Assembly (NCBI GenBank): GCA_963833705.1
Contig: CAWHYQ010000001.1
Span: forward strand, 499,583 to 563,582
Direction of reading: 5' to 3'
Length of the DNA stretch: 64,000 nucleotides
From: an uncultured Chloroflexia bacterium
GTDB lineage: Bacteria; Chloroflexota; Limnocylindria; Limnocylindrales; CSP1-4
The notes under the pieces are model-generated. The model saw only the letters and a program-made list of their open reading frames with translations, was not told the origin of the DNA and made no database searches. The position numbers and the translations under genes are program-made. The first letter of the stretch is position 1; each line of letters starts with the position of its first letter. Below are positions 5,155-58,801 of the stretch, piece by piece.

Positions 5155-5176
5155 GGTCAGTTCCCGCGGCGCGTGG

Positions 5177-5746: not shown

Positions 5747-5791
5747 GCAACTCCTCCGGACGGATCAACGCTGGTCGAGCGCGTTCCCCTG

Positions 5792-5797: not shown

Positions 5798-5841
5798 GCA
5801 GCGTCGTGCCCGCCCCCGGAATGCCCCGTTCAGGAACGTCG

Positions 5842-6282
5842 TCACAGCGGCAGGAGGACGGCGGCGATCGCCACGACGATCCCGATGCCGAGGCTCGCGA
5901 ACCCGATGCGGCTGGCCCGGGCGCGATCGCGCGACCGCGCGTTGGCGTCGGCCACCTGCTCGGTCTCGCCCACGGGCCCGAAGTTGAAGACGCCCCGAGA
6001 GCCAAAGCCGGCACAGAACTTGAACCACGCCTGGAGATAGCCCGACGCTGCGCCGGCGGCGGGGATCCCGACGAGCAGCCGGGTGATCGGCGGTGCGCCG
6101 ATGACGACGAGACCGACCAGGAGCGCGACGGTCGCGATGAGTCCGGCGTGTCCGGCTCGACGCCGCCGACGGATCTCCTCCGGACCGATGTTGCAGACGC
6201 CCGGCTGGTACTCGGTCCCTGTGATCGGCGTGCCTGTGGCGCCGGCCCCCGGTGCACTTGCGCCGAATGCGGCGAACGTCAT
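5842..6282 (-). CDS. hypothetical membrane protein
   Basis: The internal ATG at 6282 is preceded by AGGAGCACGCC. The protein has two or three hydrophobic segments. The track ORF extends to 6342. Confidence 0.5.
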   Translation of the reverse strand: MTFAAFGASAPGAGATGTPITGTEYQPGVCNIGPEEIRRRRRAGHAGLIATVALLVGLVVIGAPPITRLLVGIPAAGAASGYLQAWFKFCAGFGSRGVFNFGPVGETEQVADANARSRDRARASRIGFASLGIGIVVAIAAVLLPL

Positions 6283-6368
6283 GGCGTGCTCCTGGTTGCG
6301 TGTGCAACGAGGATATCCCTGGACCGCCGAATGGGCGGTCACCGACCCCCGCGGCGATCGGAGGGTCG

Positions 6369-6442
6369 TGGGCGGTACTGGGTTCGAACCAGTGACTTCC
6401 TCGGTGTAAGCGAGGCGCTCTGACCAGCTGAGCTAACCGCCC
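6369..6442 (-). tRNA. tRNA-Val (TAC), no encoded CCA
   Basis: Acceptor GGGCGGT/ACCGCCC, anticodon stem CCTCG/CGAGG, loop CTTACAC. The 3' end continues A-CGA rather than CCA. Confidence 0.85.
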
Positions 6443-6492
6443 GCGGACAGCATAACGACGCCGCGCCGGCGACGGTCGTGGAGTCAGCGAGG

Positions 6493-6577
6493 TGGTGCCC
6501 AGGCCGGGACTTGAACCCGGATGAGTTGCCTCATACGCCCCTCAAACGTACGCGTATACCAATTCCGCCACCTGGGC
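6493..6577 (-). tRNA. tRNA-Leu (GAG), long variable arm, CCA encoded
   Basis: Anticodon loop TTGAGGG, variable arm, T-loop GGTTCAAGTCC. Confidence 0.85.
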
Positions 6578-6617
6578 TAGAGGTGTCGCCGCGATCCATG
6601 GTCCACGTTCGAGGGCT

Positions 6618-6704
6618 TGGTACCGAGGAAGGGATTTGAACCCATACGCCCTTGCGGACACTAGCTCCTGAAGCTAGCGCGTCTACCAGTTCCGCCACCT
6701 CGGC
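6618..6704 (-). tRNA. tRNA-Leu (CAG), long variable arm, CCA encoded
   Basis: Anticodon stem CTAGC/GCTAG, loop TTCAGGA, T-loop GGTTCAAATCC. Confidence 0.85.
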
Positions 6705-41784: not shown

Positions 41785-44754
41785 TCAGCCGAGCGAGGAC
41801 GCGAGCGGCGTCTCGAACTCGGGTGCCTCGTCCGCCTCGATGGCGATCGCGTCGGCCCGCGTCAACGGCGTCATCGACTCCCAGTCATCGCCGACCTTGA
41901 CGTCGACGGTCAGCGGCACGTCCAGCGGCAGCGCCGATTCCATGGTCTCGCGCAGGACCGGGACGAGCGGCTCGACCTCGTCGCGCGGCACTTCCAGGAG
42001 CAGCTCGTCGTGGACCTGGAGCAGCGGTCGCGCCCGGAACCCGCCGGTCCGTAGGCGCTCGTCCAGCCGGATCATCGCGATCTTGACGATGTCGGCGGCG
42101 GTCCCCTGGATGGGCATGTTGATGGCCATCCGCTCGCCCGCGGCGCGGAGGGTCGGATTGCGGGCGGCCAGCTCGGGGATCGAGCGCTTCCGTCCGAGGA
42201 GGGTCGTGACGTATCCCTGCGATCGTGCCTGCTCCTTGATCGCGAGCATGTAGTAGCTGATCCCCGAATACGTGGCGAAGTAGGTGTTGATGAACTGCTG
42301 GGCCTCGGCGCGCGGGATGTTGGCACGCTCCGAGAGTCCGAAATCGCTGAGGCCGTAGGCGATGCCGAAGTTGACCATCTTCGCCATCGACCGCTCGCCG
42401 AGGGTCACGTCCGCCGGGTCCTTGTGGAGGACACGGGCCGCGGTCTCGCGATGGAGGTCGGCGCCTCGCGCGAACGCGTCTCGGAGGTGCTCGTCACCCG
42501 ACACGTGCGCGAGGATGCGCAGCTCGATCTGGCTGTAGTCGGCGGCGACCAGGGTCAGGCCAGGGTCGCCGGCCACGAAGGCGCGCCGGATCCGCCGGCC
42601 GAGGGGCGTCCTGATCGGGATGTTCTGGAGGTTCGGATCCGACGATGACAGGCGCCCGGTCGCGGCCACGGCCTGGTGGAACGTCGTGTGGAGGCGGCCG
42701 TCGTCGGCGAGCAGCGTCGGCAGGGCGTCGACGTAGGTCGAGCGGAGCTTCGTGTAGATCCGCCATTCGAGCAGCTTGTCGATCATCGGGTGGGCCGGCC
42801 GAAGGTCCTCGAGCACCGACGCGTCGGTCGAGTAGCCGGTCTTCGTCCGCTTGCCCTTGGGCAGGTTGAGCTCGAAGAACAGGATCTGCTCGAGTTGCTT
42901 CGGGCTGCCGAGGTTGAACTCGTGACCGACATCGACGTAGATCTCGGCCTCGAGCCGGGAGACCTCCGCCCCGAACTCCGTCGCGAGGACGCCGAGGGCT
43001 TGGCGGTCGAGCGCGACCCCGGTCGCCTCCATCCGCGCGAGGACGGAGATGAGCGGCAACTCGATCTCGGCGTACAGGCGGTCGAGACCGTCCTCACCGA
43101 GACGGCGCTCCAGCGGTTCGCGGACGGAGAGCGCGGACAGCGCCTCCAGACCGGCGCGCGCGGCGTTGTCGAGCTCGGCGACCGGCGGCAGGATGAGGTC
43201 GAGCTGTTCGGCCACGACATCGGCGATCGTCTGGCTGCGAAGCGACGCGTTGAGGACGTATGCCGCGATCTGTGTGTCGAACGCGACGCGCGTCGGCGAC
43301 GCGTCGGGATCGTCCGCGATGCGGGCGACCAGTAGCGGCTTGACCTCATGACCGACGACCGGGACATCGAGCCGATCCAGCAGGCGACGGAGCGCGGCGG
43401 AATCGTCCGGTCCCTCCACCGCGACCGTTCGCCCGTCCGAACCGGCGAGAGCGAGCGCGAGCGGCGCCCCGCGACGTGGGCGCGGGTCGTCGAGCAGCAA
43501 CCCGACACCGACGGCCGGTTGCGCCGCGAGCCACGGTTCGAGCCCGGCGATCCGTTCGCCGGAGTGGACTTCGATCCGCGACGGGTCGGCGATCGCTGCG
43601 GCCAGGGCCGCCGGCAGGTCCTCCGGCTCGGGAGGCACCGCCCGTTCCGCCGCGCCGACGTCGCGTTCGATATCTAGCCCATCGAGGCCGCCGGGTGACG
43701 CCGGTCGGGTGACAGCATCGAAGTCGAGTGACAGCTGGAGTCCGCCGCCCTCCGTCGGCGGTCGGTTCGGGCGGGGCGCGCCCCAGCCGGACGGTCGGCC
43801 GGCGCCGGCGACCCGTGCCGCCGGGACCGAGCCATCGGTCGCCACACCGCGCAGGGTCTCGGCCGCGTCGCCGGCCGTCTCACCGGTCATCGCCGGCAGG
43901 CGTTCGATGAGCGAGCGGAACTCGTATTCGCGGAAGAGGCGGATCACGGTCTCGCGGTCGTAGTCGCCCAGCCGTGCCGCGTCAAGGTCGAGCTCGACCG
44001 GAAGGTCGCGCACGATCGTCGAGAGGTCCTTGCCCATGAACACCTGCTCGCGGTGCTCCACGAGCTTGTCGCGCAGCTTGTCCGGCTTCACCTCGTCGAT
44101 CCGCTCGTACAACGCATCGAGCGTCCCGTACTCGCGGATCAGCTTGGCGGCGGTCTTCTCGCCGACCCCGGGCACGCCCGGGATGTTGTCGGTCGGGTCG
44201 CCCTTGAGCGCCTTGTAGTCGATCATCTGGCCGGCGACCAGGCCGAACCGCTCATCGATCCTGGCGGGGTCGTAGAGGATGGTGTTCTCGACGCCCGATC
44301 GCGTCGTCATGAGCCGTGTCCGGTCGGTCACCAGCTGGAGCATGTCGAGGTCCCCGGTCACGATCGTGGTGTCGAGGTCGCGCCGCTCGGCCTCGACGGT
44401 CAGCGTCCCGATGACGTCGTCGGCCTCATAGCCGGCCAGTTCGTAGACGGGGATGCGCAGGGCTTTGACGACCTCGCGGACCTTCGGGAACTGATCCCGC
44501 AGGTCGTCCGGCATGCGCTGCCGCGTGGCCTTGTACTCCGCGTACTGCTCGTGCCGGAAGGTCGGCCCCTGCAGGTCGAACGCGACCGCCACGTAGTCCG
44601 GGTGAAGGTCCTGGATCCCGCGAAGGACGATGCTGCAGAACCCGAAGACCGCGTTGACGAGCTCGCCCTTCGACGTCGTGAGGGGCGGGAGCGCGAAATA
44701 TCCGCGGTAGATGAGCCCGTTGCCGTCGAGCAGCATCAGGCGTTCGCTGGGCAC
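41785..44754 (-). CDS. polA: DNA polymerase I
   Basis: 5' nuclease domain (LLDGNGLIYRGYFA), 3'-5' exo-like region, and polymerase motifs (DYSQIELR, RRxAKxxNFGxxYG equivalent SMAKMVNFGIAYG, QVHDELL). The start is GTG. Confidence 0.95.
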   Translation of the reverse strand: MPSERLMLLDGNGLIYRGYFALPPLTTSKGELVNAVFGFCSIVLRGIQDLHPDYVAVAFDLQGPTFRHEQYAEYKATRQRMPDDLRDQFPKVREVVKALRIPVYELAGYEADDVIGTLTVEAERRDLDTTIVTGDLDMLQLVTDRTRLMTTRSGVENTILYDPARIDERFGLVAGQMIDYKALKGDPTDNIPGVPGVGEKTAAKLIREYGTLDALYERIDEVKPDKLRDKLVEHREQVFMGKDLSTIVRDLPVELDLDAARLGDYDRETVIRLFREYEFRSLIERLPAMTGETAGDAAETLRGVATDGSVPAARVAGAGRPSGWGAPRPNRPPTEGGGLQLSLDFDAVTRPASPGGLDGLDIERDVGAAERAVPPEPEDLPAALAAAIADPSRIEVHSGERIAGLEPWLAAQPAVGVGLLLDDPRPRRGAPLALALAGSDGRTVAVEGPDDSAALRRLLDRLDVPVVGHEVKPLLVARIADDPDASPTRVAFDTQIAAYVLNASLRSQTIADVVAEQLDLILPPVAELDNAARAGLEALSALSVREPLERRLGEDGLDRLYAEIELPLISVLARMEATGVALDRQALGVLATEFGAEVSRLEAEIYVDVGHEFNLGSPKQLEQILFFELNLPKGKRTKTGYSTDASVLEDLRPAHPMIDKLLEWRIYTKLRSTYVDALPTLLADDGRLHTTFHQAVAATGRLSSSDPNLQNIPIRTPLGRRIRRAFVAGDPGLTLVAADYSQIELRILAHVSGDEHLRDAFARGADLHRETAARVLHKDPADVTLGERSMAKMVNFGIAYGLSDFGLSERANIPRAEAQQFINTYFATYSGISYYMLAIKEQARSQGYVTTLLGRKRSIPELAARNPTLRAAGERMAINMPIQGTAADIVKIAMIRLDERLRTGGFRARPLLQVHDELLLEVPRDEVEPLVPVLRETMESALPLDVPLTVDVKVGDDWESMTPLTRADAIAIEADEAPEFETPLASSLG

Positions 44755-44848: not shown

Positions 44849-46009
44849 CTACCCGATCCCTCGACGGTCACCGAAACGCCGAGCCGCCCAGCGGACGGCT
44901 CCCAACCCGAGCCCGAGCAGGAGCAGGAAGCCGGAGAGGAGCGCGAGTGGCGAGGGACGTCCAGCATCCTGCCCGGTCTTGGCCGACGACGACTCGAGAC
45001 CCGTCAGCCCGTCGTTGACCTGACTGCCGGTGTTCCCGGTCGCGCGCTCGGCGGGATTGTCGTTCTCGCCGCTGCCCGAATAGACGTCCTCGGGGCTCGG
45101 TCGCGCTGCGACGCCATAGCCGCCACCCGAGTCGACCGCCGGTTGCTTCACGGGGGTCGGCGCGGATGCGAGGGGTACCAACGGACCGGCGGCGTCGACG
45201 GAACCGCGGTCTGGCAGGGCCACCGGCGACGCGGCCGGCGCTGCCGCGGCGACCGCGGCGGACGATGCGGCGCTTGGCCCGGGCACGACGCCCTGTCCAC
45301 CGGCCGGCGGGGCACCGATGGCATTGCCGGTCGTCGAGAGGACCGTCGTCGGACTCCCGACCATGCTCGGCAGTGTCGCGAGGAGCAGGCCCGCGAGACC
45401 AAGCGTCGTGAGTCCCGCGGCAAGCGGTCTGCTGAGCGTGTCCCGAGACGTCCCGAACGCGGCGATGAACCGGCGCCACGGATTCGGTCGGAGGCGCGCC
45501 GCGTCCGCGGGCGTCAGCGCGTACTCGCGCGGCCGGACCGGGGTCGGCAGGTCGCGGGTGGCCGCGCTGATCGCCACGAGGTCGGCGTGGAGTCGCGCGC
45601 ACAGACTGCACGTGTCGATGAGACGCTCGGCGGCGACGCGGTCCGGACCCGCCAGCGCGCGGTCAGCGAGTGCCGCGACGAGCAGCGTGTCATGGGTGGC
45701 GTGCTCCTGAGTCCCGTTCATCACCCCCGTCAGACGAGCCCCGCTCGCACCCGGTTCCCCGGCGGCCTCCGCCGTCAACCTCGTGGCATCGGCCACCGTG
45801 ATGCGGAAGTCGCGCGGTCGGGCCGGTGTCGGCATGGCGCGGGTCGCGCTCGACAGGGCGACGAGATCGGCATGGAGGTCGGCACAGGTGGTGCAATCGG
45901 CCACCTGGGCCTCGGCTGCGATGCGGTCGGGTGGGGCCAGATCGCCGTCGAGCAGCGCGGCCACCAGCAGCGGATCGTGGTCGTCGTGGGGATCGCGCCG
46001 ATCAGCCAC
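44849..46009 (-). CDS. membrane anti-sigma factor with two tandem zf-HC2-like N-terminal modules
   Basis: It overlaps the ECF sigma gene by 8 nt. It has two HD.LLVAAL...C..C..LHADLVA.S.ATR..PTP.RPR modules, then a TM segment (LTTLGLAGLLLATL) and a Pro/Ala/Gly-rich extracytoplasmic part. Confidence 0.7.
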   Translation of the reverse strand: MADRRDPHDDHDPLLVAALLDGDLAPPDRIAAEAQVADCTTCADLHADLVALSSATRAMPTPARPRDFRITVADATRLTAEAAGEPGASGARLTGVMNGTQEHATHDTLLVAALADRALAGPDRVAAERLIDTCSLCARLHADLVAISAATRDLPTPVRPREYALTPADAARLRPNPWRRFIAAFGTSRDTLSRPLAAGLTTLGLAGLLLATLPSMVGSPTTVLSTTGNAIGAPPAGGQGVVPGPSAASSAAVAAAAPAASPVALPDRGSVDAAGPLVPLASAPTPVKQPAVDSGGGYGVAARPSPEDVYSGSGENDNPAERATGNTGSQVNDGLTGLESSSAKTGQDAGRPSPLALLSGFLLLLGLGLGAVRWAARRFGDRRGIG

Positions 46010-46742: not shown

Positions 46743-47195
46743 TCACCCCGGTGGCGGTGGCATGACCCCCATCTGGACCAGCAGACCGACCATGTCGAGG
46801 TTGAGCCAGCCCTCGGTAATCCTCCCGTCCCGGACGCGGAACATGCGGGTGGCCGTCCAGTGCATGGCCCGACCGGTCGGCGGGATCCCCATGAACGGCC
46901 CGGAGTTGGTGCCGTCGATCACCCCACGAGCGACGACGAGGTCGTCCTCGGCTACGGCGTCCTCGAGGGTGAACTTGATATCCGGGAACGTGGCCGCCCA
47001 GACCTGATACGACATCGCGAGTCCAGCAGCGCCCGGTGGCTGCCCGGGGATGGGATCGTGCTCGACGTAGTCGGGGGCGACCAGGCCCTCGAAGGCGCCG
47101 TAGTCCCCGGCATTCGCGACATCGATGAAGCGCCGAATGACGGCGTGATTGGCCTGGAGTCGTTCCGCGTCAGATACGGTCGTGGATCCTGTCAT
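46743..47195 (-). CDS. SnoaL-like / predicted ester cyclase family protein
   Basis: 150 aa. N..VIRRFIDVANAGDY.....V.PDYVEH...PG and ...GVIDGTNSGPFMGIPPTGRAMHWTATRMFRVRDGRITEGW are typical of the ester cyclase (NTF2-like) family. SD GAGGA lies upstream. Confidence 0.7.
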   Translation of the reverse strand: MTGSTTVSDAERLQANHAVIRRFIDVANAGDYGAFEGLVAPDYVEHDPIPGQPPGAAGLAMSYQVWAATFPDIKFTLEDAVAEDDLVVARGVIDGTNSGPFMGIPPTGRAMHWTATRMFRVRDGRITEGWLNLDMVGLLVQMGVMPPPPG

Positions 47196-47241
47196 CGTCG
47201 TGTCCTCGGTGGTCTGCGGTTGGGAGCGGGTCGACCGGGCG

Positions 47242-47700
47242 TCAGCGCGGGGGTCCACCGAACGGTGGGACGACACCCATCTGCTGGAGCATCCCGAACG
47301 CATCGAAGTCCTGCCACCGCTCGATGACCATCCCGTCATCGTCGAGCCGATAGATGATGATCCCGCTCCACGACACTTTCCTGCCGGTCGGCGGGATGCC
47401 CATGAACGATCCCGAGTGGGTCCCCGTGATCGTGCCGCGCGATGCGACGCGGTCGCCCTCGGCGACGACGAAGTCCTCGCTGACATGCCAGTCGGGCATC
47501 GCCGCATAGAACGGGTCGAGCGAGTCGACGAGGGCCTTCGGTCCGACGATGTCGCCAGATGCACCCCCGTGGTTGACGAATCCCGGATGGACGATCTCGT
47601 AGAACTCGTCGCGCTGCTTCGCGTTCACCGCCCGGTAGAAGCGGTGGATGACCTCGCGGTTGCGCTGGACGCGATCGACCGACGCCTGATCGGTGGCCAT
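47242..47700 (-). CDS. SnoaL-like / predicted ester cyclase family protein (paralog of 46743-47195)
   Basis: 152 aa. NREVIHRFYRAVN...GTITGTHSGSFMGIPPTGRKVSWSGIIIYRLDDDGMVIERW. SD GAGGGGG lies upstream. Confidence 0.7.
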   Translation of the reverse strand: MATDQASVDRVQRNREVIHRFYRAVNAKQRDEFYEIVHPGFVNHGGASGDIVGPKALVDSLDPFYAAMPDWHVSEDFVVAEGDRVASRGTITGTHSGSFMGIPPTGRKVSWSGIIIYRLDDDGMVIERWQDFDAFGMLQQMGVVPPFGGPPR

Positions 47701-47912
47701 GGCAGCCCCCTCGCTGGTCGGGGGTCGCCAGATCGGTCGACGTTCACCCCCGTTCGGGCCGATTGTGTCGCATCGAGGGGGTGGTCGCACAGACGGCCTG
47801 TAACGATACGGCGTCGCGAACGTGATACCCGACGCGTAGAGTGAGGCGCGCTCATACGCCGCCGACGGCATGGTCGTCGCCCGCGGACCCGACGCCTGTT
47901 CGAGGTGGAGCG

Positions 47913-48938
47913 ATGACCAGCACCGACGGCCAGCGGCGGACCGCCATCGCCGGACTCGCGTATGCGACGCCAGCCTGTCGGGTCACCACCGACGAGGTCG
48001 AGGATCGGATCCGCTCGGCGTCCGGTCGACTGCCGGTCCCGCGCGGGACTCTCAAGCTCGTCAGCGGCATCGACCACCGGTACATGGTCGGGCCGACCGA
48101 GTTCTCGAGCACGCTCGCGATCCGCGCCGGCTGCCGTGCGCTCGAGGACGCCCGACTCTCTCCGTCCGAGATCGACCTGCTGATCTTCGCCTCGGCAAGC
48201 CAGGATCAGATCGAACCCGCGACGGCGCACATCGTGGCGGACGCGATGGGCGTCCACGCGCCGGCATTCGACGTGAAGAACGCCTGCAACAGCTTCGTCG
48301 ACGGCATGCGCATCGCCGAGGCGATGATCGCGGCCGGCGGGGTGCGCAACGCGCTCGTCGTCAGCGGGGAGACGCCCACCCTCGCGACTCGATGGAACGT
48401 CGGATCGCTTCGCGAGCTTCGTCGGTCGTTCATCGGCTACACGATGGGCGACCTCGGCAGCGCCATGGTCCTGGCACCGACCGACGACGGACGTGGCATC
48501 TTCTACCGTCGGTTCTGGTCCGGCTCGCAGCATTGGGAGATCGTCCAACTCCCCGGCGGCGGCTCACGGCACCCGCGCGGCGAGGAGTACGCCTACGCGC
48601 AGGGCGACGGCAACCGCCTGCGGGACGCGTTCATGGGACTCGATGCCGACATCGTCCTGAGCGTCTTCCGCGAGACCGGCACGACCTGGGCCGATTTCGC
48701 CCTCGTGTGCGCCCACCAGGTCACGATGCCGTTCGTCGACGACCTTGTGCGCAAACTCGGGATCCCGCGCGACCTGCTGGAATTGACGGTCGGCGAGTTC
48801 GGGAACGTCAGTTCCGGGAGCATCCCGCTCACGCTCGCGAGGGCCCGCGAGGCGGGTCGGGTCCGTCGCGGCGACCGCGTGCTGTGCATCGGGCTGGGCG
48901 CCGGGATCAGCGTCGCGACGATGGCCCTGGTGCTGTGA
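47913..48938 (+). CDS. KAS III-like thiolase (FabH/OleA-like condensing enzyme)
   Basis: SD GAGGTGGAG, then an ATG at 47913. Cys site FDVKNACNSF, His CAHQV, Asn FGNVSSGSIP. The upstream segment SQDQIEPATAHIV carries a Glu-Pro as in OleA-type enzymes. Confidence 0.8.
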   Translation: MTSTDGQRRTAIAGLAYATPACRVTTDEVEDRIRSASGRLPVPRGTLKLVSGIDHRYMVGPTEFSSTLAIRAGCRALEDARLSPSEIDLLIFASASQDQIEPATAHIVADAMGVHAPAFDVKNACNSFVDGMRIAEAMIAAGGVRNALVVSGETPTLATRWNVGSLRELRRSFIGYTMGDLGSAMVLAPTDDGRGIFYRRFWSGSQHWEIVQLPGGGSRHPRGEEYAYAQGDGNRLRDAFMGLDADIVLSVFRETGTTWADFALVCAHQVTMPFVDDLVRKLGIPRDLLELTVGEFGNVSSGSIPLTLARAREAGRVRRGDRVLCIGLGAGISVATMALVL

Positions 48939-49843
48939 CCGCGGACGGACGGTCTGGGTCCGGGGCCCGGCCGGCTGCGCGAACACCGTCGCGGTCGCCC
49001 GCCCGGTTCGACCCGGTCGACGGGACGGCCCTCGTGGCGATGCCGCCGTTCGACCTCGGCGAGCGTCCGGTCGAGATCCTGGCACCGGGAACGTCCGAGC
49101 TGTGGATCGTGGTGGCGGCCTACAACGAGGTCGAGCGGGTCGCCGAGACGCTCGACGCGCTCGCGCGCCAGGTCCGGTCGGCGGTCGTGTGTCTGGTCGA
49201 CAACGCGAGCACCGACGCGACCGTTGGTACCGTTCGCGCCTGGTCGGCGGCGCATCCCGAGGTCCCGTTGCGGCTCGTCCACGAACCGGAGAAAGGGACC
49301 GGCGCGGCCGCGGACACCGGGTTTCGCGTCGCGGCCGCGGCCGGCGCGCGACTCGTGCTGCGGACCGACGCCGACTGCCTCCCCGCGCCCGACTGGTCGG
49401 CGCACCTGGCCGACGCCCTCGATTCCGGGCTCGACCTCGCCATCGGGCGGACGGTCCCGAGGACCGATCTCGAGCCGCTCCACTGGTGGGAGCCGGCGGT
49501 CATCGAGGCGCTGATGGCCATCTCCGATCTCGTCGGGCGGCTCCGGCCGAGCAACCGTGGCCACGGGTACCAGACGCGCTTCCGCCTGTGCATCGGGAAC
49601 AACCTTGGGACTCGCGCGGACATGTACACCGCTTCCGGCGGCTTCCCACGAAGTCGGATCGAGGAGGTCCACGAGGACCGGGCGCTGATGAACCGGATGC
49701 GCCGGATCACGCCCCGCATCGGGACCGATCGGGAAGCGCTCGTCGCCACGAGCATCCGCCGCCTGCGCGCCTACGGCCTGGTCGGGATCCTGCGCTGGTA
49801 TCTCGACCATGGCGGCGGCAATGGGACGGTCGATGTCCGCTGA
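48935..49843 (+). CDS. glycosyltransferase family 2
   Basis: WIVVAAYNE...LVDNASTDAT and RTDADC (DxD-like) motifs. The GTG overlaps the upstream stop (GTGA). An alternative internal start lies near 49040. Confidence 0.75.
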   Translation: MTADGRSGSGARPAARTPSRSPARFDPVDGTALVAMPPFDLGERPVEILAPGTSELWIVVAAYNEVERVAETLDALARQVRSAVVCLVDNASTDATVGTVRAWSAAHPEVPLRLVHEPEKGTGAAADTGFRVAAAAGARLVLRTDADCLPAPDWSAHLADALDSGLDLAIGRTVPRTDLEPLHWWEPAVIEALMAISDLVGRLRPSNRGHGYQTRFRLCIGNNLGTRADMYTASGGFPRSRIEEVHEDRALMNRMRRITPRIGTDREALVATSIRRLRAYGLVGILRWYLDHGGGNGTVDVR

Positions 49844-51126
49844 CCGGCCGACGAGCCCTGTGGCGCCGCTGGCCGGCCGCGGACGACGCCACGCCGCATC
49901 CCGAGGGCGGTTCGGTCGACCGCTGGCTGCCGCCCGGTCGGTGGCGAGCCGCATGGTGGGAGTCGCGGGTCTGGCTGGCCTCGAACGCGCCACTGTTCGT
50001 CGGCCTGCGCACCACCGGGAGACTCCCGATCGTGCGTCTCGGAGGGTTCGGCACGCTCGTCAACGACGCCCGGGTCGGGCGTGACATCCTGGTCGACACG
50101 GCACGGTTCCGGACGGTCGGGCGGGGCACGCACGGCGAGCTGCTCGACCAGGTGGTCGGGCCGCGCGCGTTGCTGAACATGGACGGGCCCGAGCATGAGG
50201 CCCTGCGCCGATCGCTCCACGACCTGTTCGGAGGTCCCGCGAGCCGTACGCTCGTGGACGCCACGGTCACCGCGCCGCTGGCCGAGATGGATCGCCGGCT
50301 GCGCGCCGGTGAGCGGGTCGACCTCGTCCGGGCCCTTCGGGTGATCACGGGGCGAACCACGTTCGGCCTGCTCGGCGCCCCCGACCCCGTCGATGGCGAC
50401 GCCGGATACCTCGCCGCCTACCGCGATGGCGAAGAGCTGCTCGCGATGACGGTGCACGCCGTTCGGCGCGGTATCCGTCCGACGGAACTGGAACGCGGGC
50501 GGCGGCTCGTCGAAGCGCTCGGCGCCGGGAGTCGCTCGGGCTGGGCATCGACGGGCGACGGCACGATGCCACGACTCCGAGAGATGGGGATGAGCTTCGA
50601 GGAGGCCCGATCGCTCGTCGTGGTCATCATCCTGGCCGGCACCGAGACCGTCAGTTCCGGCGCGCCCCGCGCGATCGCGACCCTGATGGATCACGGCGCG
50701 TGGGATGGGATCGATCCCGGTGACGACGCCGCCCTCGACGCGGCGATCGAGGCGGGCCTGCGCCTCGTCACGCCGAGCCAGTTCATCATCCGCAGCTGCA
50801 TCGAGGACGCGACCGTCCGCGGTCGGCGGTTCCGCCCCGGCGAGCGCGTCTTCCTGTCGCTCTACAACATGGCCCGCACGCCCGCTCTCTACGCGGGTCT
50901 CGACCCCGAGGCACTCCATCTCGGTGACCCCGTGCCCCGCGAGCTCCGCCACATCTGGTTCGGGGCTGGTCCCCATTTCTGCATCGGCAGCTCCATCGCC
51001 CGGGAGCAGCTTCGAGCCCTGCTGCGGACATTGCGCGGGGCGGGCGACCTGCGGATCGTCCACCGCCGGCCGGCAAGGGGCGTGCTCTTCCCGGCCTACG
51101 CCGAATGCTGGATCCAGCGCCGATGA
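49833..51126 (+). CDS. cytochrome P450; 5' end unresolved
   Basis: I-helix AGTETVSS and heme loop FGAGPHFCIGSSIA. The P450 frame has no ATG or GTG between 49840 and about 50030. The only nearby ATG (49833, overlapping the GT2 end) is in another frame. Either there is a frame change in the first ~20 codons or the start is unusual (CTG at 49840). Confidence 0.75.
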
Positions 51127-52679
51127 CGGACATCGACGGGCACATCGAGGACCTGGTGACGTCGGGCGCCGGTGGCGACCGACCGGCCTTCGTCGATCCG
51201 ACCGGTCGGGTCACGCTCACCCGGTCGGGCCTGGCCGTTCGCATCCGGCGTGCTGCCGGAAGCTTCGCCGGTGCGGGGCTCGGTCCCGGTGATGCAGTCG
51301 CCTTCGGCATCCGCCAGGACGCCGAGGGTGTCGCGTGGCTGCTCGGCGCCATCCGCGCCGGGGTCACCGTGGTCGTCCTCGACCCTGGACTGGCGCCCTC
51401 GACCACGATCGATCGATGCCGCGCCGCCGGGGTCCGCGCGGTCGTGTTGGACCCCGGGGTCGCCCTCGCGGCCGGTTCGCGGCTGGGGCGCCGCGTCGCC
51501 GCGGCGGCTGGGTTGCGGATCCCCGATCCGCGAGCGCTCGGCGGCGACGTGTGGGTCACGGGCGCGACACCACTCCGAGGCGTCCGCCGCCTCGATCGGG
51601 TCGGCCGTGCGGACGCGCGCCGGCCACGCAGCGCGGACGAGCCCGCGCTCGTCGTCTTCACCTCGGGGACCACGGGTGCGCCGAGAGGCATCGTCCACTC
51701 CTCGCGCAGCCTGGCCGCGACGCTGGACGCCGTGGTCGGCCTGTCCGGCATGCGACCTGACGACCGGGTCCTCGGGACGGGGCTGCACCTGACCGTGCCG
51801 GCGCTGCTGGCCGGGGCGACGGTCGTGATCCCGCCACGAGGCGGCGCGACCCGGCTCGCGTCGGTCACGCGCCGGCTGGGCGTCACGCAGATGTCCCTCC
51901 CGCCGCACGTGGCGGTCGACTGGGCTGCCGCCGGCGGCGCCGGCACGGGCCTGCGTCGCCTCTTCCTCGGGTCGGCCCCGACGCGCAACGTCGCGCTGCG
52001 CTCGATCATCGCGAGCGTCCCGGCCGGTGCCGAGATCTGGTCGCTGTACGGGATGACCGAGCAGCTGCTGGTCGCCGCCGTGGCGGCCGCGGAGCGGGTC
52101 CGGCACGACGAGGCCACGGGCGACCTCGTCGGCCGGCGGCTGCCCGGTGTCACGACGCGGTTCTCGGCGGACGGCGAGTTGTGGGTCGGCGGTCCGGGCC
52201 TCGCTCGGGGGATCCTGGGCGATCCCGAGCCGGCGTCGGAGATGCCGACCGGGGATCTCGGCTTCATGGCCGGGGACGGCCGGATCGTGCTGACGGGGCG
52301 GCGCAAGGAGATGATCATCCGCCGTGGCGCGAACATCTATCCGGCCCTGTACGAATCGCGCGTGGCCGAGGCGGCCGGTCTGGCTGCCGCGATCATGGTC
52401 GGCCTTCCGGCACCTGATGGTGACGAGAGCGTAGTCCTCTGGGTGGAGCCGCGAACCGGTGAGCGAGCCGAACGCGCACGCCGGCGAACGCTGGCGATCC
52501 TGGCCGGAGGCACCTCGCCGGTGGACGCGCACGCCCGGCCGGACGCGGTGTTCACCATCGACCGGATCCCACGTTCCGGTCGGTCGGGCAAACCGGACCG
52601 TCGGGCACTCGTCATGCTTGCCGGCGCTCGCCTGGGGCGGACCGTCATGGCGGATCCGATCGTGGCGGAGCCCGTCTGA
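51123..52679 (+). CDS. AMP-dependent synthetase/ligase (ANL superfamily; OleC / fatty-acyl-AMP-ligase-like)
   Basis: FTSGTTGAPRG, YGMTE, and TGDLG...GRRKEMIIRRGANIYP motifs. The ATG overlaps the P450 stop (ATGA). Confidence 0.8.
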   Translation: MTDIDGHIEDLVTSGAGGDRPAFVDPTGRVTLTRSGLAVRIRRAAGSFAGAGLGPGDAVAFGIRQDAEGVAWLLGAIRAGVTVVVLDPGLAPSTTIDRCRAAGVRAVVLDPGVALAAGSRLGRRVAAAAGLRIPDPRALGGDVWVTGATPLRGVRRLDRVGRADARRPRSADEPALVVFTSGTTGAPRGIVHSSRSLAATLDAVVGLSGMRPDDRVLGTGLHLTVPALLAGATVVIPPRGGATRLASVTRRLGVTQMSLPPHVAVDWAAAGGAGTGLRRLFLGSAPTRNVALRSIIASVPAGAEIWSLYGMTEQLLVAAVAAAERVRHDEATGDLVGRRLPGVTTRFSADGELWVGGPGLARGILGDPEPASEMPTGDLGFMAGDGRIVLTGRRKEMIIRRGANIYPALYESRVAEAAGLAAAIMVGLPAPDGDESVVLWVEPRTGERAERARRRTLAILAGGTSPVDAHARPDAVFTIDRIPRSGRSGKPDRRALVMLAGARLGRTVMADPIVAEPV

Positions 52680-53659
52680 TGCGGGTCGCGGTGACCGGTG
52701 CGACCGGGTTCGTCGGCGGGCACCTCGTCCGCCGGCTGGAGGCCGGCGGGCACGAGGTCCTCGCGCTCGGGCGTCGGCCGCACGCTCCCGACGGTCTCAT
52801 CGCCTCGGCCTACGAGGTCTGGGACCTTGGCGACGGCCGACAGGCGCCACGGTCCATCGCCGCCTGCGACGCGGTCGTGCACGTCGCGGCCCATGTGTCC
52901 GACTGGGGGCCGCGGGACACGTTCCAGGCGGTCACGGTCGGCGGCACGGCTCGACTGCTCGACGCCACCGCCCCGGGTGCGCGCGTCATCGTCATCGGGA
53001 GTGCGTCCGTGTACGACCCCCGGCGGCCTCACCTGCGTGCCGCCGAGGGCGAGGCGCCCGTCGAGCGTTACCTGAACGAATACGGCCGCGCCAAGGCGGA
53101 CCAGGAACGGCTGGTGGCACGACGCCGGCCGGATGCCCTGGTACTGCGACCGCACGCCGTCTATGGGCCCGGCGATCGGACGCTCCTGCCGCGCCTGATC
53201 GACGCGCGACGACACGGTCGGCTCGCGCTGCCCGCGGGCGGCCGGCACCCGATGTCGGTCACCCATGTCGACAGCCTGGCGGACGCCGTCCTTGCCGCGT
53301 TGCGGCATCCCGAGGTCCGAGATCCCATGAACGTCGCCGACGCCACACCGATCGTCCCGGCCGAGATGCTCCTGGCGGCGTTCGAGGCGCTCGGCCTGCG
53401 AACGCGGATCCGGTCGGTGCCGGTCCCGATCGCTCGTCTCGTGGCCGACGCCGTCGAGGGCGCCTGGCGCGTGAGCCGCCGACCTGACGCCCCACCGCTG
53501 ACACGCTATGCCGTCAGCCATCTCGCGGGACCGTTCGTGCTCGACCTGACGCGGTTTCACACCGAGCTCGGGATCCGGCCGGATCGGCGGCACCTCGAGA
53601 TGTTGCCCGAGGTCGTCGCGGGGTTCGCCCGCCGGCCGGTCGCCGGGGCAGCCCGGTAG
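52679..53659 (+). CDS. NAD(P)-dependent epimerase/dehydratase-family SDR (3-beta-HSD / OleD-like)
   Basis: VTGATGFVGGHL Rossmann motif and YGRAK (YxxxK). The start overlaps the ligase stop by 1 nt. Confidence 0.8.
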   Translation: MRVAVTGATGFVGGHLVRRLEAGGHEVLALGRRPHAPDGLIASAYEVWDLGDGRQAPRSIAACDAVVHVAAHVSDWGPRDTFQAVTVGGTARLLDATAPGARVIVIGSASVYDPRRPHLRAAEGEAPVERYLNEYGRAKADQERLVARRRPDALVLRPHAVYGPGDRTLLPRLIDARRHGRLALPAGGRHPMSVTHVDSLADAVLAALRHPEVRDPMNVADATPIVPAEMLLAAFEALGLRTRIRSVPVPIARLVADAVEGAWRVSRRPDAPPLTRYAVSHLAGPFVLDLTRFHTELGIRPDRRHLEMLPEVVAGFARRPVAGAAR

Positions 53660-53695
53660 GGTCGGCTACTCGCGGTACGATGCGCGCGGCGCCCG

Positions 53696-53782
53696 GCCGG
53701 AGTGGCGGAACAGGCAGACGCGACGGTCTCAAACACCGTTCCTTGCAAGAGGGTGCGGGTTCGATCCCCGCCTCCGGCACCA
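53696..53782 (+). tRNA. tRNA-Leu (CAA), long variable arm, CCA encoded
   Basis: Acceptor GCCGGAG/CTCCGGC, anticodon stem ACGGT/ACCGT, loop CTCAAAC, T-loop GGTTCGATCCC. Confidence 0.85.
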
Positions 53783-53806
53783 CTGATCGCGAAATGAGGA
53801 TCCAGC

Positions 53807-54259
53807 ATGCCCGCCCCGGCCCACCGGCAGGCCATCGGCTACCCGACGAACCGGTTGCTGGCCGTCTTCGACGACCCCGCCGACGCGGCGGCCGCGCTGG
53901 CCGACCTCGCGGCCGGGGGGATCGCGACGCGTGACCTCGAGATCCTGCGGGGCGAGGAGGGCGCCGACCGGGTCGATGGCACCGGTGGCGTATCGGGCTG
54001 GCTCGGTCGCCTTCGGCGGGCCTTCGATTTCACGATGATGGACCAGCTCGTCGACTTCGCCGCGTACGAACGGGCGCTGCGCGACGGGCGCGCCGTCGTC
54101 ATGGTCCACGTCCACGGCGACGCCCCGAAGGAGTCCGCCCACAGGATCCTGCGGGCGCACCACGGCCATTTCATCAACTATTACGGCCGCTTCGCGACCG
54201 AGGAACTGGACATGTGGCACGGTCCCGAGCCGGACATCCCGGGGTATCTGCGTCGCTGA
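53807..54259 (+). CDS. hypothetical protein (150 aa)
   Basis: SD GAGGA lies 6 nt upstream of the ATG, and the GC3 is coding-like. I recognise no family. Confidence 0.55.
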   Translation: MPAPAHRQAIGYPTNRLLAVFDDPADAAAALADLAAGGIATRDLEILRGEEGADRVDGTGGVSGWLGRLRRAFDFTMMDQLVDFAAYERALRDGRAVVMVHVHGDAPKESAHRILRAHHGHFINYYGRFATEELDMWHGPEPDIPGYLRR

Positions 54260-54937: not shown

Positions 54938-57900
54938 TCAGGCGAGTCGCAGGTCCACCAAACCGTCGCCCAAGCGGCGGCGAACCTCGGCCAGCAGTTC
55001 CGCGTCATAGGCGACGCCCCGACGCAGCTCCATCGGCAGCGGCGGACCCCCGCCCGGCCCCGGGATGTGGATGACGACGCGCGTCGATCCGGGCCGGTCG
55101 CGCAGGACGGCCTTGAAGGTCTCCATCGCCCCGACCAGGCGATCGGGTGGCGCGCTCCCCGCGAAGCGCACATGGAGGATGGTGTCAGGCCCGGCGTCGA
55201 CCGGGGCGTCGGCGGTCGCGTCGGCGACGATCCGCGCGCGGGCCTCGTCTGGGACGGTCGGCTCGTCGTCCTCGTCAGGCCCGACGGCGGCTCCCGGGTT
55301 GGCGACGTAGGCCGACACAGGCTCGGCCGGTGCGATCGATGGCAGGGAGGCCTCGGCAACACCGCCTCGGCGGGGTGAGACGAAGGGCACCGCCACCTGG
55401 GGTCGCCCCGGGCTCGCGGGGCCTCCGACGCCGCCCCCGACACCGACCGGCGCCGGCTGCCCGGGGCCGACGGCGACCATCGGCCGTGGCGGGAACGTGC
55501 CGGGTCGCTCGCCGCCGATCGCGCCATGACCGTTGCCGTTCGCGCCGGGACCCCGCCGACCCGCACCCCGCTCACCGGCGGCCACCTGCCGGGCGAAGGC
55601 CTCGGGTCCGGCCGCGACCGCCCCCTCCCACTCGACGGCGAGATCCGCCAGCAACGAGATGTCTTCGCCCTTGTGGTCGACCCGCCCCGCCACGAGAAGG
55701 ATCTCGCCATCGCGCCAGGTCGAGCCGGTCTGCTCGTACAGCCTTGGGAAGACGACGACCTCCACGGTCCCCTGGAGATCCTCCATGGTCACGATGGCCA
55801 TCGTCGCCCTCGCCTTGGTGACGACCGTGCGGACGCCGGTCACGATCCCGCCGACCACGACCCGCTGGCCGTCGAGCGACTCGTCGCGCAGGTCGCTCGA
55901 GTAGGCGGTCACGAAGGCACTGATCTGCTCGGCGACCTCACCCATCGGATGCTCCGACAGGTACAGGCCGAGGAGCTCCTTCTCCCAGCGCAGCCGCTCG
56001 CGGACCGGAACCTCCGTCGCGTTCGGCAGCGGGCGCTCGAAGGCCGCGGCATCGGCGGCGCCCAGGTCGAACAGCGAGGTCTGGCCGGAGATCCGGTCGC
56101 GCTGCGTCGCCTGTCCTGCCCCGATCGCGTCGTCGAGACCGAGCAGGATCTGCGATGGGTGTCCGAATGCACTCAACGCCCCCACCTTGGCCAGCGTCTC
56201 GAGGACCTTGCGGTTGGCGAGGCGCAGGTCGATCCGCGTGCAGAAGTCGGTCAGCGAACGGAACTCGCCGCCCTCGTCGCGCGCCGCGATGATCGATTCG
56301 ATGGCGCCCTGCCCGACGTTCTTGACGGCCAGCAGGCCGAACCGGATGGCGTCGCCCTCGACCGTGAACTCGAGCTGGCTCCGATGGACGTCCGGCGGCA
56401 GGACCTCGATGCCCATCCGCCGGCACTCGGCGACGGCGGCCGCCACCTTCTCCTCGTTCGACCGGAACGCGGTCAGCACGGCGGTCATGTAGTCGACCGT
56501 ATGGTTCGCCTTCATGTACGCGGTCTGGTAGGCGATCAGTCCGTAGCAGGTGGCGTGCGCCTTGTTGAACCCGTATCGCTCGAACGGCTCGAAGGCGGTG
56601 AACACGGCGTCGATCACGTTCGCGGCCACACCACGTTCCGCGGCCTGGGTGACGAACTTCTCCTTCTGGGCCCGCAGGACCGCCGACTTCTTCTTGCGGA
56701 TCGCGTAACCCAGCGTGTCGGCCTCGGGTCCGGTGAAGCCACCGAGGGCGATGGCCGCGGACATGATGTCCTCCTGGTAGACGAAGATCCCGTAGGTCTT
56801 CGCCAGGTACGGCTCCAGCAGCGGGTGGAGGTAGGTGACGGGCTCCTGGCCGTGCTTGCGCCGGATGTACGCCGGGATGTTGTCCATCGGTCCCGGCCGG
56901 TAAAGCGCGACCATCGCGGCGAGGTCGTAGACCGATGTCGGCTGCAGGTCGCGGACATATCGGCGCATCCCAGCCGACTCGAGCTGGAAGACGCCCGTCG
57001 TCTCGCCCGAGGCGAGCAGTTCGAAGGTCGTCGCGTCGTCCAGTGGGATGTCGTCGAGGTCGATGGCGATGCCGCGGTTGGCCCGCACGAGATCGACCGC
57101 CTGACGCAGGATGGTCAGGTTCGACAGCCCCAGGAAGTCGAACTTCAGCAGTCCGAGCGCCTCGATGGCGTGCATCTCGTACTGGCTCATGAGGCCGTCC
57201 GAGTTCGTCGCCTTCTGGAGCGGCATGAGCTCGGTCAGCGGCTCGCGGCTGATGACGACGCCGGCGGCGTGGGTCGACGCGTTTCGGGCGACCCCCTCGA
57301 GGTGGCGGGCGAAGTCGATGATCCGCTTGACACCCGGGTCGGCATCGACCTGTTCGCGCAGCGCCGGCGCGACCTGGAGCGCCTCGTCGAGCCGGATGCC
57401 GAGCTGGTTCGGGACGGCCTTGGCGATCCGGTCGACCTCGCCATACGAGTGGCCGAGGACGCGCCCGACGTCACGGATCGCGGCCCTTGCGAGCATCGTG
57501 CCGAACGTGATGATCTGGGCGACGTGGTCCTGGCCGTACTTCCGGCCGACGTAGGCGATGACCTCCTCGCGGCGGCCGTCCTCGAAGTCCACGTCGATAT
57601 CGGGCATCGTCACGCGGTCCGGGTTGAGGAAGCGTTCGAACGGCAGCTGGTAGAGGATCGGGTCGACCGGCGTGATCCCGAGCGTGTAGGTCACGATCGA
57701 GCCGGGCGCGCTGCCGCGGCAGGTCGTCTGGATGCCCTGTTCGCGAGCGAACCGGATGAAGTCCGCGACGATGAGGAAGTACCCGGCGTACCCCATCTGG
57801 AGGATGACGCCGAGCTCGTAGTCGAGGCGCTCCTGGAGCTCGGGGGTCACCGTCCCGTAGCGGCGCTCGAGGCCCAGTTGGCACTCGGCGCGAAGCCAGC

Positions 57901-58801
57901 TCTCGACGGTGTGCCCGTCGGGCACCGGAAAGTGTGGGATCCGGAGCTGGCCGAGCGGCAGGGTGATGTCGGTCATCTCGGCGATGCGTCTGGTGTTCCG
58001 GATGGCGTCGAGGTTGTCGGGGAAGAGCGCAGCCATCTGGGCCGCCGACTTCACGTAGAACTCGTGGGTGTCGAAACGCATCCGGTTGGGCGTGTCGAGG
58101 TTGTTGCCGGTGCCGATGCACAGCAGCACGTCGTGCGCCTCGGACTGGTCCTCGCGGACGTAGTGCAGGTCGTTGGTCACGACCAGCGGCAGGCCGGCCT
58201 CCGGCGCCAGGCGGAGCAGCTGTTCGTTGAGCCGGCGCTGGTCGGGCAGGCCGTGGTCCTGGAGTTCGAGGTAGAACCGGTCGGGCCCGAAGATGTCGCC
58301 GTACTCGCCGGCGAGCTTGCGGGCCAACTCCCAGTCGTCGGTCTCGAGCGCGCGCGGGATCTCACCGCTCAGGCAGGAGCTGAGCCCGATCAGCCCCTCG
58401 CTGTGCCGGGCGAGATGCTCGCGGTCGATCCGCGGCTTGTAGTAGTACCCGTCGATGTGGGCGTCGGTGATGAGGCGGCAGAGGTTGCGGTAGCCCACGA
58501 GGTCCTGCGCGAGCAGGATGAGGTGGAACGGCTGGGCGTCGGCTTTGCCCTCCTTGTCGGTCATGGACCGCCGCGCGACGTAGGTCTCCACGCCGATGAT
58601 CGGCTTGATGCCCTTGGTCTTCGCGGCCTGGTAGAACGCGACCGCGCCATACAGGGCGCCGTGGTCCGTGATCGCCAGCGAATCCATGCCCAGCTGGGCC
58701 GCCGTGTCGACCAGCTCCGTGATCCGGCCGAGGCCGTCGAGCAGGCTGAACTCGGAGTGCACGTGGAGGTGCGTGAAGTCGTTCGGGGCGAGGGTCGTCA
58801 C
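54938..58801 (-). CDS. dnaE: DNA polymerase III alpha subunit DnaE, with a roughly 200-aa C-terminal extension
   Basis: PHP domain (FTHLHVHSEFSLLDG), polymerase core and OB-fold region, followed by a Gly/Pro-rich linker and an extra terminal segment. The start is GTG. Confidence 0.95.
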   Translation of the reverse strand: MTTLAPNDFTHLHVHSEFSLLDGLGRITELVDTAAQLGMDSLAITDHGALYGAVAFYQAAKTKGIKPIIGVETYVARRSMTDKEGKADAQPFHLILLAQDLVGYRNLCRLITDAHIDGYYYKPRIDREHLARHSEGLIGLSSCLSGEIPRALETDDWELARKLAGEYGDIFGPDRFYLELQDHGLPDQRRLNEQLLRLAPEAGLPLVVTNDLHYVREDQSEAHDVLLCIGTGNNLDTPNRMRFDTHEFYVKSAAQMAALFPDNLDAIRNTRRIAEMTDITLPLGQLRIPHFPVPDGHTVESWLRAECQLGLERRYGTVTPELQERLDYELGVILQMGYAGYFLIVADFIRFAREQGIQTTCRGSAPGSIVTYTLGITPVDPILYQLPFERFLNPDRVTMPDIDVDFEDGRREEVIAYVGRKYGQDHVAQIITFGTMLARAAIRDVGRVLGHSYGEVDRIAKAVPNQLGIRLDEALQVAPALREQVDADPGVKRIIDFARHLEGVARNASTHAAGVVISREPLTELMPLQKATNSDGLMSQYEMHAIEALGLLKFDFLGLSNLTILRQAVDLVRANRGIAIDLDDIPLDDATTFELLASGETTGVFQLESAGMRRYVRDLQPTSVYDLAAMVALYRPGPMDNIPAYIRRKHGQEPVTYLHPLLEPYLAKTYGIFVYQEDIMSAAIALGGFTGPEADTLGYAIRKKKSAVLRAQKEKFVTQAAERGVAANVIDAVFTAFEPFERYGFNKAHATCYGLIAYQTAYMKANHTVDYMTAVLTAFRSNEEKVAAAVAECRRMGIEVLPPDVHRSQLEFTVEGDAIRFGLLAVKNVGQGAIESIIAARDEGGEFRSLTDFCTRIDLRLANRKVLETLAKVGALSAFGHPSQILLGLDDAIGAGQATQRDRISGQTSLFDLGAADAAAFERPLPNATEVPVRERLRWEKELLGLYLSEHPMGEVAEQISAFVTAYSSDLRDESLDGQRVVVGGIVTGVRTVVTKARATMAIVTMEDLQGTVEVVVFPRLYEQTGSTWRDGEILLVAGRVDHKGEDISLLADLAVEWEGAVAAGPEAFARQVAAGERGAGRRGPGANGNGHGAIGGERPGTFPPRPMVAVGPGQPAPVGVGGGVGGPASPGRPQVAVPFVSPRRGGVAEASLPSIAPAEPVSAYVANPGAAVGPDEDDEPTVPDEARARIVADATADAPVDAGPDTILHVRFAGSAPPDRLVGAMETFKAVLRDRPGSTRVVIHIPGPGGGPPLPMELRRGVAYDAELLAEVRRRLGDGLVDLRLA

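Follow-up and report, generated by a model that had tools for sequence, protein, structure and literature searches.

A stretch of 64 kb of DNA from an uncultured Chloroflexia bacterium (contig CAWHYQ010000001.1 of the assembly GCA_963833705.1), which we call the window, contains at positions 47913-53659 of the plus strand a cassette of five genes. These genes encode a thiolase of the beta-ketoacyl-ACP synthase III (KAS III) fold, a family 2 glycosyltransferase (GT2), a cytochrome P450, a stand-alone adenylate-forming enzyme of the ANL superfamily and an extended short-chain dehydrogenase/reductase (SDR). We found that the five genes are a real conserved operon, which is present in the same order in at least five phyla, beyond what chance would produce. 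The thiolase is OleA-like and the SDR resembles OleD, while the cassette is devoid of a gene for the decarboxylase OleB. We propose that the cassette encodes a self-contained, horizontally mobile Ole-type lipid pathway without OleB, a proposal which in our judgement has an even chance of being right.

The five-gene unit and its conservation

The thiolase gene (47913-48938, 341 aa; Pfam PF08545/PF08541, ACP_syn_III/ACP_syn_III_C) is preceded on the plus strand by the Shine-Dalgarno-like sequence gaggtgga (47902-47909), which was read directly in the sequence and ends 4 nt before the ATG. Its stop codon ends at 48938 in a GTGA overlap (48935-48938), and the GTG at 48935 opens the GT2 gene (48935-49843, approximately 302 aa from this GTG; PF00535, Glycos_transf_2, 1.9e-17), which stops with TGA at 49841-49843. 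The P450 gene (49833-51126; PF00067, p450), the body of which lies in frame 1, is connected by an ATGA overlap (51123-51126) to the ANL gene (51123-52679, 518 aa; PF00501, AMP-binding, 2.2e-42), which is opened by the ATG at 51123. The ANL stop codon TGA (52677-52679) is part of a TGATG overlap (52677-52681), in which the ATG at 52679 opens the gene for the OleD-like SDR of the 3-beta-hydroxysteroid dehydrogenase (3-beta-HSD)/epimerase type (52679-53659, 326 aa; PF01370/PF01073, Epimerase/3Beta_HSD). This last gene stops with a TAG ending at 53659, and downstream of it a tRNA-Leu(CAA) is located at 53696-53782. A first-pass annotation, made from the sequence alone, had described five plus-strand open reading frames chained by start/stop overlaps, with a Shine-Dalgarno-bearing leader upstream and a tRNA downstream, and had assigned their products to the same five families. 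All of this was found at the claimed coordinates, and the motifs quoted in it (KNACNS, IEPATAH, HQ, GN, FGAGPHFCIG and FTSGTTGAPRG) were all present in the translations. A scan of the region 47200-54000 for promoters and terminators found none, a result which is uninformative for a Chloroflexota genome with 70% GC.

The view that the five genes form one unit, also part of the first-pass annotation, was borne out by a survey of gene neighbourhoods. Thiolase homologs were located on their contigs, and a scan with a thiolase signature was performed using one genome per species, which resulted in 506 confirmed thiolase relatives, the best 80 of which were kept. In total 89 loci (83 of them distinct) were fetched and searched by tblastn with the five window proteins. 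The order thiolase-GT2-P450-ANL-SDR on one strand was found in 57 of the 89 fetched loci, corresponding to 53 of the 83 distinct ones. The hosts belong to the Chloroflexota, Actinomycetota, Gemmatimonadota, Gammaproteobacteria and Myxococcota, and the flanks of the cassettes are unrelated. Represented are Chloroflexia metagenome-assembled genomes (MAGs), Gemmatimonadaceae, Woeseiaceae and other Gammaproteobacteria, one Polyangiales MAG, and the actinomycetes Actinomadura, Spirillospora, Nonomuraea and Streptosporangium together with the Micromonosporaceae Catellatospora, Hamadaea and Longispora. The overlap between the GT2 start and the thiolase stop is also present in the loci L001 and L003, and the GT2 orthologs show 39-76% identity.

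The five-gene cassette was also found in Arthrobacter sp. YN and in Promicromonospora. In the first strain (CP022436.1; locus L095, 3975-9660) the full cassette is located between adk and map, inside the conserved ribosomal gene cluster secY-adk-map-infA-rpmJ, while in Promicromonospora (CP183413.1; locus L097) it lies between ABC-transporter genes. Several loci deviate from the common order. Mycobacterium intermedium shows the rearranged order thiolase-P450-ANL-GT2-SDR, locus L004 (7287-9488) harbors thiolase-ANL-SDR only, and in L006 (7813-9954) and L022 a thiolase-P450 pair is accompanied by a divergent SDR-ANL pair. Further variants are thiolase-P450-SDR and thiolase-GT2-ANL-SDR, and in the loci L085 and L088, which contain thiolase, P450 and SDR, no ANL was detectable nearby. 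In Actinoplanes sp. NPDC024001 (L096, L098) the arrangement is thiolase-GT2-ANL-GT2 with two paralogous GT2 and no P450 in the sequenced part; the thiolase of L098 is 48% identical to that of the window. Thiolase, ANL and SDR, which are encoded together in the window and in nearly all relatives, are the most constant part among the loci, and since this trio co-occurs even where GT2 or P450 is missing, it can be regarded as the core, as in oleACD. With respect to the surroundings of the variants, L004 is adjoined by a divergent gene for an acyl carrier protein (ACP)-like protein and by a 638-aa ANL, and in L006/L007 an MMPL transporter gene is located directly upstream.

All-against-all clustering of the flanking open reading frames revealed no neighbour common across phyla and only synteny within actinomycete lineages. 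Other conserved neighbours, namely transporters, ferredoxins and acyltransferases, were rejected as members of the unit, because none of them was common across phyla in this clustering. In approximately 25 actinomycete loci, from Actinomadura, Spirillospora, Catellatospora and Promicromonospora, a second P450 with 32-38% identity to the cassette P450 is encoded divergently just upstream of the thiolase (e.g. L033 8577-9746, L097 2274-3584). The first-pass annotation had also considered that a pair of SnoaL-like genes and an ECF (extracytoplasmic function) sigma/anti-sigma pair just upstream may belong to the pathway. We do not follow this suggestion, since no SnoaL homolog was detected by tblastn near any related cassette and only L001, the closest relative, which is syntenic, has retained the sigma pair. 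Thus, because the flanking genes differ between lineages and the two pairs are not conserved, we limit the unit to the five genes.

The cluster had been annotated as lacking OleB, and this was corroborated by tblastn with two OleB sequences from the canonical loci L090 and L091, both of which have oleB next to oleA. No homolog was found in the 64-kb window, which is part of an 828-kb contig, and none within 10 kb of more than 80 related cassettes, except for one weak, generic hydrolase match in L077.

The thiolase, the SDR, the GT2 and the P450

The key residues of the thiolase are Cys125 (in the motif KNACNS), His268 (followed by Gln), Asn298 and the pair Glu101-Pro102. Cys125, His268 and Asn298 do not vary in alignments of 15 and of 58 sequences, and among 84 sequences their conservation is at least 95%. 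Cys125 aligns with C143 of OleA, in which Cys143, His285 and Asn315 form the catalytic set. The pair Glu101-Pro102 aligns with Glu117-Pro of OleA (SRDYLEPSTAS in 3ROW), while Neisseria FabH has Phe-Pro at this position (QFPS). In OleA, Glu117 is the general base, which the partner subunit contributes. The Glu-Pro is at least 95% conserved in the 84 cassette thiolases. According to Smith et al., Glu117-Pro is found in nearly all OleA proteins and belongs to a mechanism that is unique in the thiolase superfamily (PMC7064751). We consider the OleA-type Glu-Pro as the decisive feature, and the thiolase is OleA-like, with OleA probably as its nearest family, by a narrow margin over FabH.

Several other comparisons point in the same direction. 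The best NCBIfam model was NF006720, which matched over the full length with 188.4 bits, while FabH models reached 170 and 135 bits. That NF006720 represents OleA was checked with known proteins: Stenotrophomonas-type OleA scored 464 bits and E. coli FabH 110 bits. The identity to Xanthomonas OleA is 29% over the full length, and in a search of PDB sequences with phmmer OleA was first with 125 bits, compared to 122 bits for FabH. When an AlphaFold (AF2) model of the thiolase (pLDDT, the predicted local distance difference test, 93.8) was searched with Foldseek, the top 16 matches were all X. campestris OleA, with template-modelling (TM) scores of 0.86-0.89. Further, several homologs are labelled as acyl-CoA:acyl-CoA alkyltransferase by JGI. 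The earlier assignment of the thiolase to the OleA type can therefore be kept, since Glu-Pro and Cys/His/Asn are present and OleA is both the best curated family and the best structural match.

For the SDR, the best NCBIfam model was that of OleD (NF042422, 129.5 bits), followed by the Shewanella-type OleD model NF042423 (106.7 bits) and by HpnA (65.6 bits). A true OleD gives the same family ranking. In BLASTP, the SDR and OleD share 27% identity with 99 bits, while any PDB chain scored at most 50 bits. The 129.5 bits are below the curated OleD cutoff of 580 bits. Judged by these scores, the SDR appears clearly closest to OleD among the families compared. This is consistent with the OleD-type role given to it at first pass, the OleD models being its top matches, well ahead of HpnA.

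The two remaining enzymes are more distant from characterized proteins. The conserved core of the GT2, with its DAD (DxD) and ED motifs, begins near residue 57. The named NCBIfam GT2 families gave weak matches only (EpsD, TIGR04283, CruG and HpnB), and a PDB sequence search returned weak matches to generic GT-A N-terminal domains, with no hint of the acceptor. The P450 has the heme-Cys motif FGAGPHFCIG and the I-helix motif AGTET. It is distant from every solved P450 (at most 52 bits in the PDB sequence search), and these distant P450s gave no hint of its substrate.

The start of the P450 gene needs special attention. The first-pass annotation had pointed to the ATG at 49833 as the only one near the start. 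The overlap of this ATG with the end of the GT2 gene is indeed present, but frame analysis places the ATG in frame 0 and the P450 body (to 51126) in frame 1, so that the two are offset by one base. In the frame of the body there is no canonical start between 49588 and 50032, the next one being the GTG at 50032. In six relatives, the P450 begins with MSA(E/D) at the ATG equivalent to 49833, which there shares the frame of the body. In the window, the N-terminus is read as MSADRPTSPVAPLAG in frame 0 and continues as SVDRWL...WWESRVWL in frame 1, which indicates a shift by 1 nt at approximately 49880-49900, i.e. approximately 50-65 nt past the conserved ATG. The P450 and SDR genes are also split in the related long-read MAG contigs L001 and L002, which points to indel errors in this data source, so that an assembly indel is likelier than a real disruption.

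The ligase, the proposed pathway and competing explanations

In the pathway that we propose, the thiolase would form an acyl-Cys125 intermediate and Glu101 from the partner subunit would deprotonate the second acyl-CoA, so that a non-decarboxylative, head-to-head Claisen condensation would yield a 2-alkyl-3-oxo acid. With NAD(P)H as reductant, the OleD-like SDR would then turn the 3-oxo compound into a 2-alkyl-3-hydroxy acid. The ANL enzyme may adenylate the carboxylate, and attack by the 3-OH would close a beta-lactone, which is the most economical outcome and corresponds to the role of OleC, LstC and NltC. Alternatively, the acceptor could be CoA or another nucleophile, since the cassette contains neither a carrier protein nor an acyltransferase. 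Finally, the P450 could hydroxylate an alkyl chain and the GT2 could then attach a sugar to the new hydroxyl group. As the product we predict a long-chain 2-alkyl-3-hydroxy acid, or its beta-lactone, which is hydroxylated and glycosylated. We infer all of these steps, the condensation and the reduction from family-specific features of the two enzymes and the lactone step mainly from gene context.

Several observations weigh against this proposal, most of them concerning the ligase and the thiolase. The first-pass annotation had taken the ligase for OleC, and this we could not confirm. The ANL enzyme has the motifs A3 (TSGTTGAPRG), A5 (YGMTE), A7 (TGD), A8 (GRRKEMIIRRGANIYP) and the A10 Lys (SGK), which are conserved across 68 cassette ANLs. 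Its best NCBIfam model is PRK06187 for long-chain fatty-acid CoA ligases (119 bits). Three models, NF045786, NF045785 and PRK09274, were used for the OleC family; NF045786 gave 64 bits (rank 18) and PRK09274 100 bits, while true OleC scores 1013, 748 and 539 bits on the models of this family. The identity to Stenotrophomonas-type OleC is 26%. As many as 255 library representatives matched the ANL at E<1e-30, compared to only ~1e-22 for OleC in BLASTP, and the 150 nearest representatives are stand-alone ANLs and A domains of nonribosomal peptide synthetases (NRPS) and do not include canonical OleC. These representatives, being unnamed, do not assign the ANL to a class and show only that both of these groups are nearer to it than canonical OleC. 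A profile hidden Markov model (HMM) of the cassette ANLs scored OleC with 165 and 157 bits, slightly above E. coli FadD (143 bits), and single NRPS A domains with 80-129 bits. No OleC was among the PDB sequence matches of the ANL. Common to cassette ANL and OleC are the short motifs VRPSPE, DPG and TE-LPVA, and among the ANL homologs listed, two are labelled as olefin beta-lactone synthetase by JGI, most others as acyl-CoA synthetase. Based on these comparisons, the ANL is not specifically OleC-like and appears to be no close OleC relative.

As to the thiolase, its 188.4 bits are below the curated OleA cutoff of 285 bits, and a profile of the cassette thiolases scored Neisseria FabH (4RYB) with 200 bits and OleA with 194.5 bits. 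In Foldseek, E. coli FabH (TM 0.86), PqsD and BioZ were nearly equal to OleA. A published search pattern for OleA is EPxx[AS]x(14,18)DxxNACL (Surger et al. 2020, PMC7158056). The window thiolase, with EPATA, 14 residues and DVKNACN, agrees with it at all positions except the last, where it has Asn for Leu; NACNS is conserved across the cassette thiolase family. Further, in its central segment the thiolase can be aligned without interruption with FabH and not with OleA. By scores, the thiolase thus seems to lie about midway between OleA and FabH. Placement of the thiolase, which had been recommended as a check, gave a divided answer: the OleA model leads (188 vs 170 bits), but the score remains below the cutoff and the family profile slightly favours FabH. 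To these points the broken P450 reading frame in the window has to be added, and also the fact that the purified, unstable OleA homolog of Actinoplanes atraurantiacus, which is encoded in a similar gene region described below, did not condense C10-C16 acyl-CoAs (PMC7064751). Taken together, the pathway idea of the first-pass annotation is reasonable and partly supported, but it is not new.

The same scores could be explained by a starter-unit logic similar to that of PqsA/PqsD or of other pairs of ANL and KAS III enzymes. Here the ANL would be an ordinary CoA ligase for acyl or aryl substrates and would supply the starter unit to the KAS III enzyme, which would perform a decarboxylative condensation with a malonyl thioester; the SDR would reduce the 3-keto group, and P450 and GT2 would tailor a shorter 3-hydroxyacyl product. 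This would fit the best matches of the ANL to acyl-CoA ligase models and the name acyl-CoA synthetase given to most of its homologs by JGI, as well as the thiolase profile scoring FabH as high as OleA, the near-equal structural matches to PqsD and BioZ, and the FabH-like continuity of the central segment. However, the conserved Glu-Pro is the base of OleA, at the position where FabH has Phe-Pro, and the SDR is specifically OleD-like and not FabG-like. In addition, the loci L085 and L088, where thiolase, P450 and SDR occur but no ANL was detected in the vicinity, speak against a need for the ANL to supply the thiolase. We therefore consider a starter-unit pathway unlikely.

Another explanation retains the OleA-type condensation and the reduction and differs in the role of the ANL. 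As acyl-AMP or acyl-CoA, the mycolate-like 2-alkyl-3-hydroxy acid activated by this enzyme would be passed on to a sugar or to an acceptor in the envelope, and a structural glycolipid with an ester or glycoside linkage would result. This is consistent with the absence of a specific OleC affinity of the ANL and with the MMPL transporter gene directly upstream in L006/L007. The occurrence of the cassette in many phyla and its site within the ribosomal gene cluster of Arthrobacter sp. YN, between adk and map, also suggest a lipid with a housekeeping function and not a reactive warhead. On the other hand, neither an acyltransferase nor a carrier protein is encoded in the cassette, the flanking genes are not shared between phyla, and L004, with thiolase, ANL and SDR only, mirrors the lactone-forming logic of nlt and lst. 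A structural glycolipid as the product thus seems improbable to us.

Finally, one could consider an ordinary OleABCD pathway to cis-olefins whose oleB gene is located in another part of the genome, because thiolase and SDR are Ole-like and the OleB search covered 64 kb of the 828-kb contig. We regard this as very improbable, since OleB is absent within 10 kb of more than 80 cassettes while the canonical loci L090 and L091 have oleB beside oleA, the A. atraurantiacus genome was reported to be without oleB (PMC7064751), and P450 and GT2, which are conserved along with the other genes, take no part in the formation of olefins.

Returning to the Ole-type pathway without OleB, it is tempting to go one step further. 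The cassette may make an undescribed, widespread class of lipids, namely a mycolate-like 2-alkyl-3-hydroxy acid from head-to-head condensation, or its beta-lactone, that is hydroxylated and glycosylated, with an ANL lineage distinct from OleC; we offer this extension tentatively, as possible but doubtful. If it were true, the producers of this lipid class would number in the hundreds of species, would be spread over at least five phyla and would include common cultured genera such as Arthrobacter, Actinomadura and Streptosporangium, and the ANL would represent a lineage of beta-lactone synthetases or of hydroxy-acid activating enzymes apart from canonical OleC.

Known cluster types and flanking genes

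The combination of genes had been presented at first pass as one not recognised among described pathways. This turned out to be incorrect: the same five functions and a pathway were already proposed in 2020 for Actinoplanes atraurantiacus, whose genome has no oleB and unites the genes for OleA, a glycosyltransferase, OleC, a P450 and OleD in one region (Smith et al., mBio 2020, PMC7064751). The steps proposed there are condensation, reduction, hydroxylation, glycosylation and ring (lactone) closure (PMC7064751). The region shares with the window cassette the five domain types in one cluster, the lack of oleB and the proposed chemistry. Its OleA homolog (WP_097326105) is 29.1% identical to X. 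campestris OleA (PMC7064751), similar to the 29% of the window thiolase, and hydrolysed p-nitrophenyl hexanoate in vivo (PMC7064751). The region differs in its listed gene order, which is thiolase-GT-OleC-P450-OleD, compared to thiolase-GT2-P450-ANL-SDR in the window. Since its flanking genes were retrieved with RODEO and then assigned by profile HMMs (PMC7064751), probably at the domain level, the label OleC is there as uncertain as it would be for the window ANL. The report describes a single organism.

When compared to the canonical OleABCD systems of Xanthomonas and Stenotrophomonas (L090, L091), the cassette has in common the Cys/His/Asn and the Glu-Pro base of the thiolase, and an operon that also encodes an ANL enzyme and an extended SDR of the OleD type. 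In contrast to these systems, it is without OleB and has GT2 and P450 in addition, and the identities are only 26-29%. Moreover, the window ANL is outside the OleC/PRK09274 family by profile score, and the window thiolase has NACN where OleA has NACL, and a FabH-like central segment. The lipstatin (lstABCD) and nocardiolactone (nltABCD) clusters resemble the cassette in their core of thiolase, reductase and ANL without a decarboxylase. That the beta-lactone is retained by such an OleB-less core was established in vitro for nlt (bioRxiv 10.1101/856955). However, these clusters encode two thiolase subunits (LstA/B, NltA/B), while there is one thiolase gene in the window, and they lack P450 and GT2; this comparison is based on gene content. 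KAS III enzymes of the FabH/PqsD type share the fold and the Cys/His/Asn triad with the cassette thiolases, with profile and TM scores nearly as for OleA, but they have Phe-Pro or another non-Glu residue in place of the Glu-Pro, and their operons are without a partner OleD-like SDR.

Thus, the window cassette is a further member of a recognised but orphan cluster type. In the literature searched, including papers that appeared after Smith et al. 2020, no characterised product of this type was found. To the single published mention our survey adds the fixed gene order across at least five phyla, approximately 500 species-level genomes that match the thiolase signature, easily cultured hosts which carry the cassette, and an ANL that is not a close OleC relative. 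To our knowledge, no product of the thiolase-GT2-P450-ANL-SDR cluster type has been isolated so far. Beta-lactones are privileged warheads of enzyme inhibitors, lipstatin/orlistat being the best-known example. If the predicted chemistry holds, the cassette would be a compact, mobile five-gene module leading to glycosylated long-chain beta-lactones or to mycolate-like glycolipids.

With regard to the genomic surroundings in the window, the cassette is flanked by polA for DNA polymerase I (41785-44754, minus strand) and dnaE for the alpha subunit of polymerase III (54938-58801, minus strand). The side with polA and the sigma factor gene is syntenic with the Chloroflexia MAG contig of locus L001. 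The two tandem SnoaL-like genes (46743-47688, minus strand; PF07366, ~1e-31 each) are located between the ECF sigma gene and the cassette, and they look like a local insertion, because they are absent from L001, the closest syntenic relative. Downstream of the ECF sigma gene, a putative anti-sigma factor without a Pfam match is encoded (44849-46009, minus strand). Within it, a segment of approximately 85 aa is duplicated in tandem (D..LLVAAL.D..LA.PDR.AAE...C..CA.LHADLVA.S.ATR..PTP.RPR), and behind this duplication come a hydrophobic segment and a tail rich in Pro and Ala. At some distance from the cassette, seven tRNA genes are clustered at 1169-6704 of the window.

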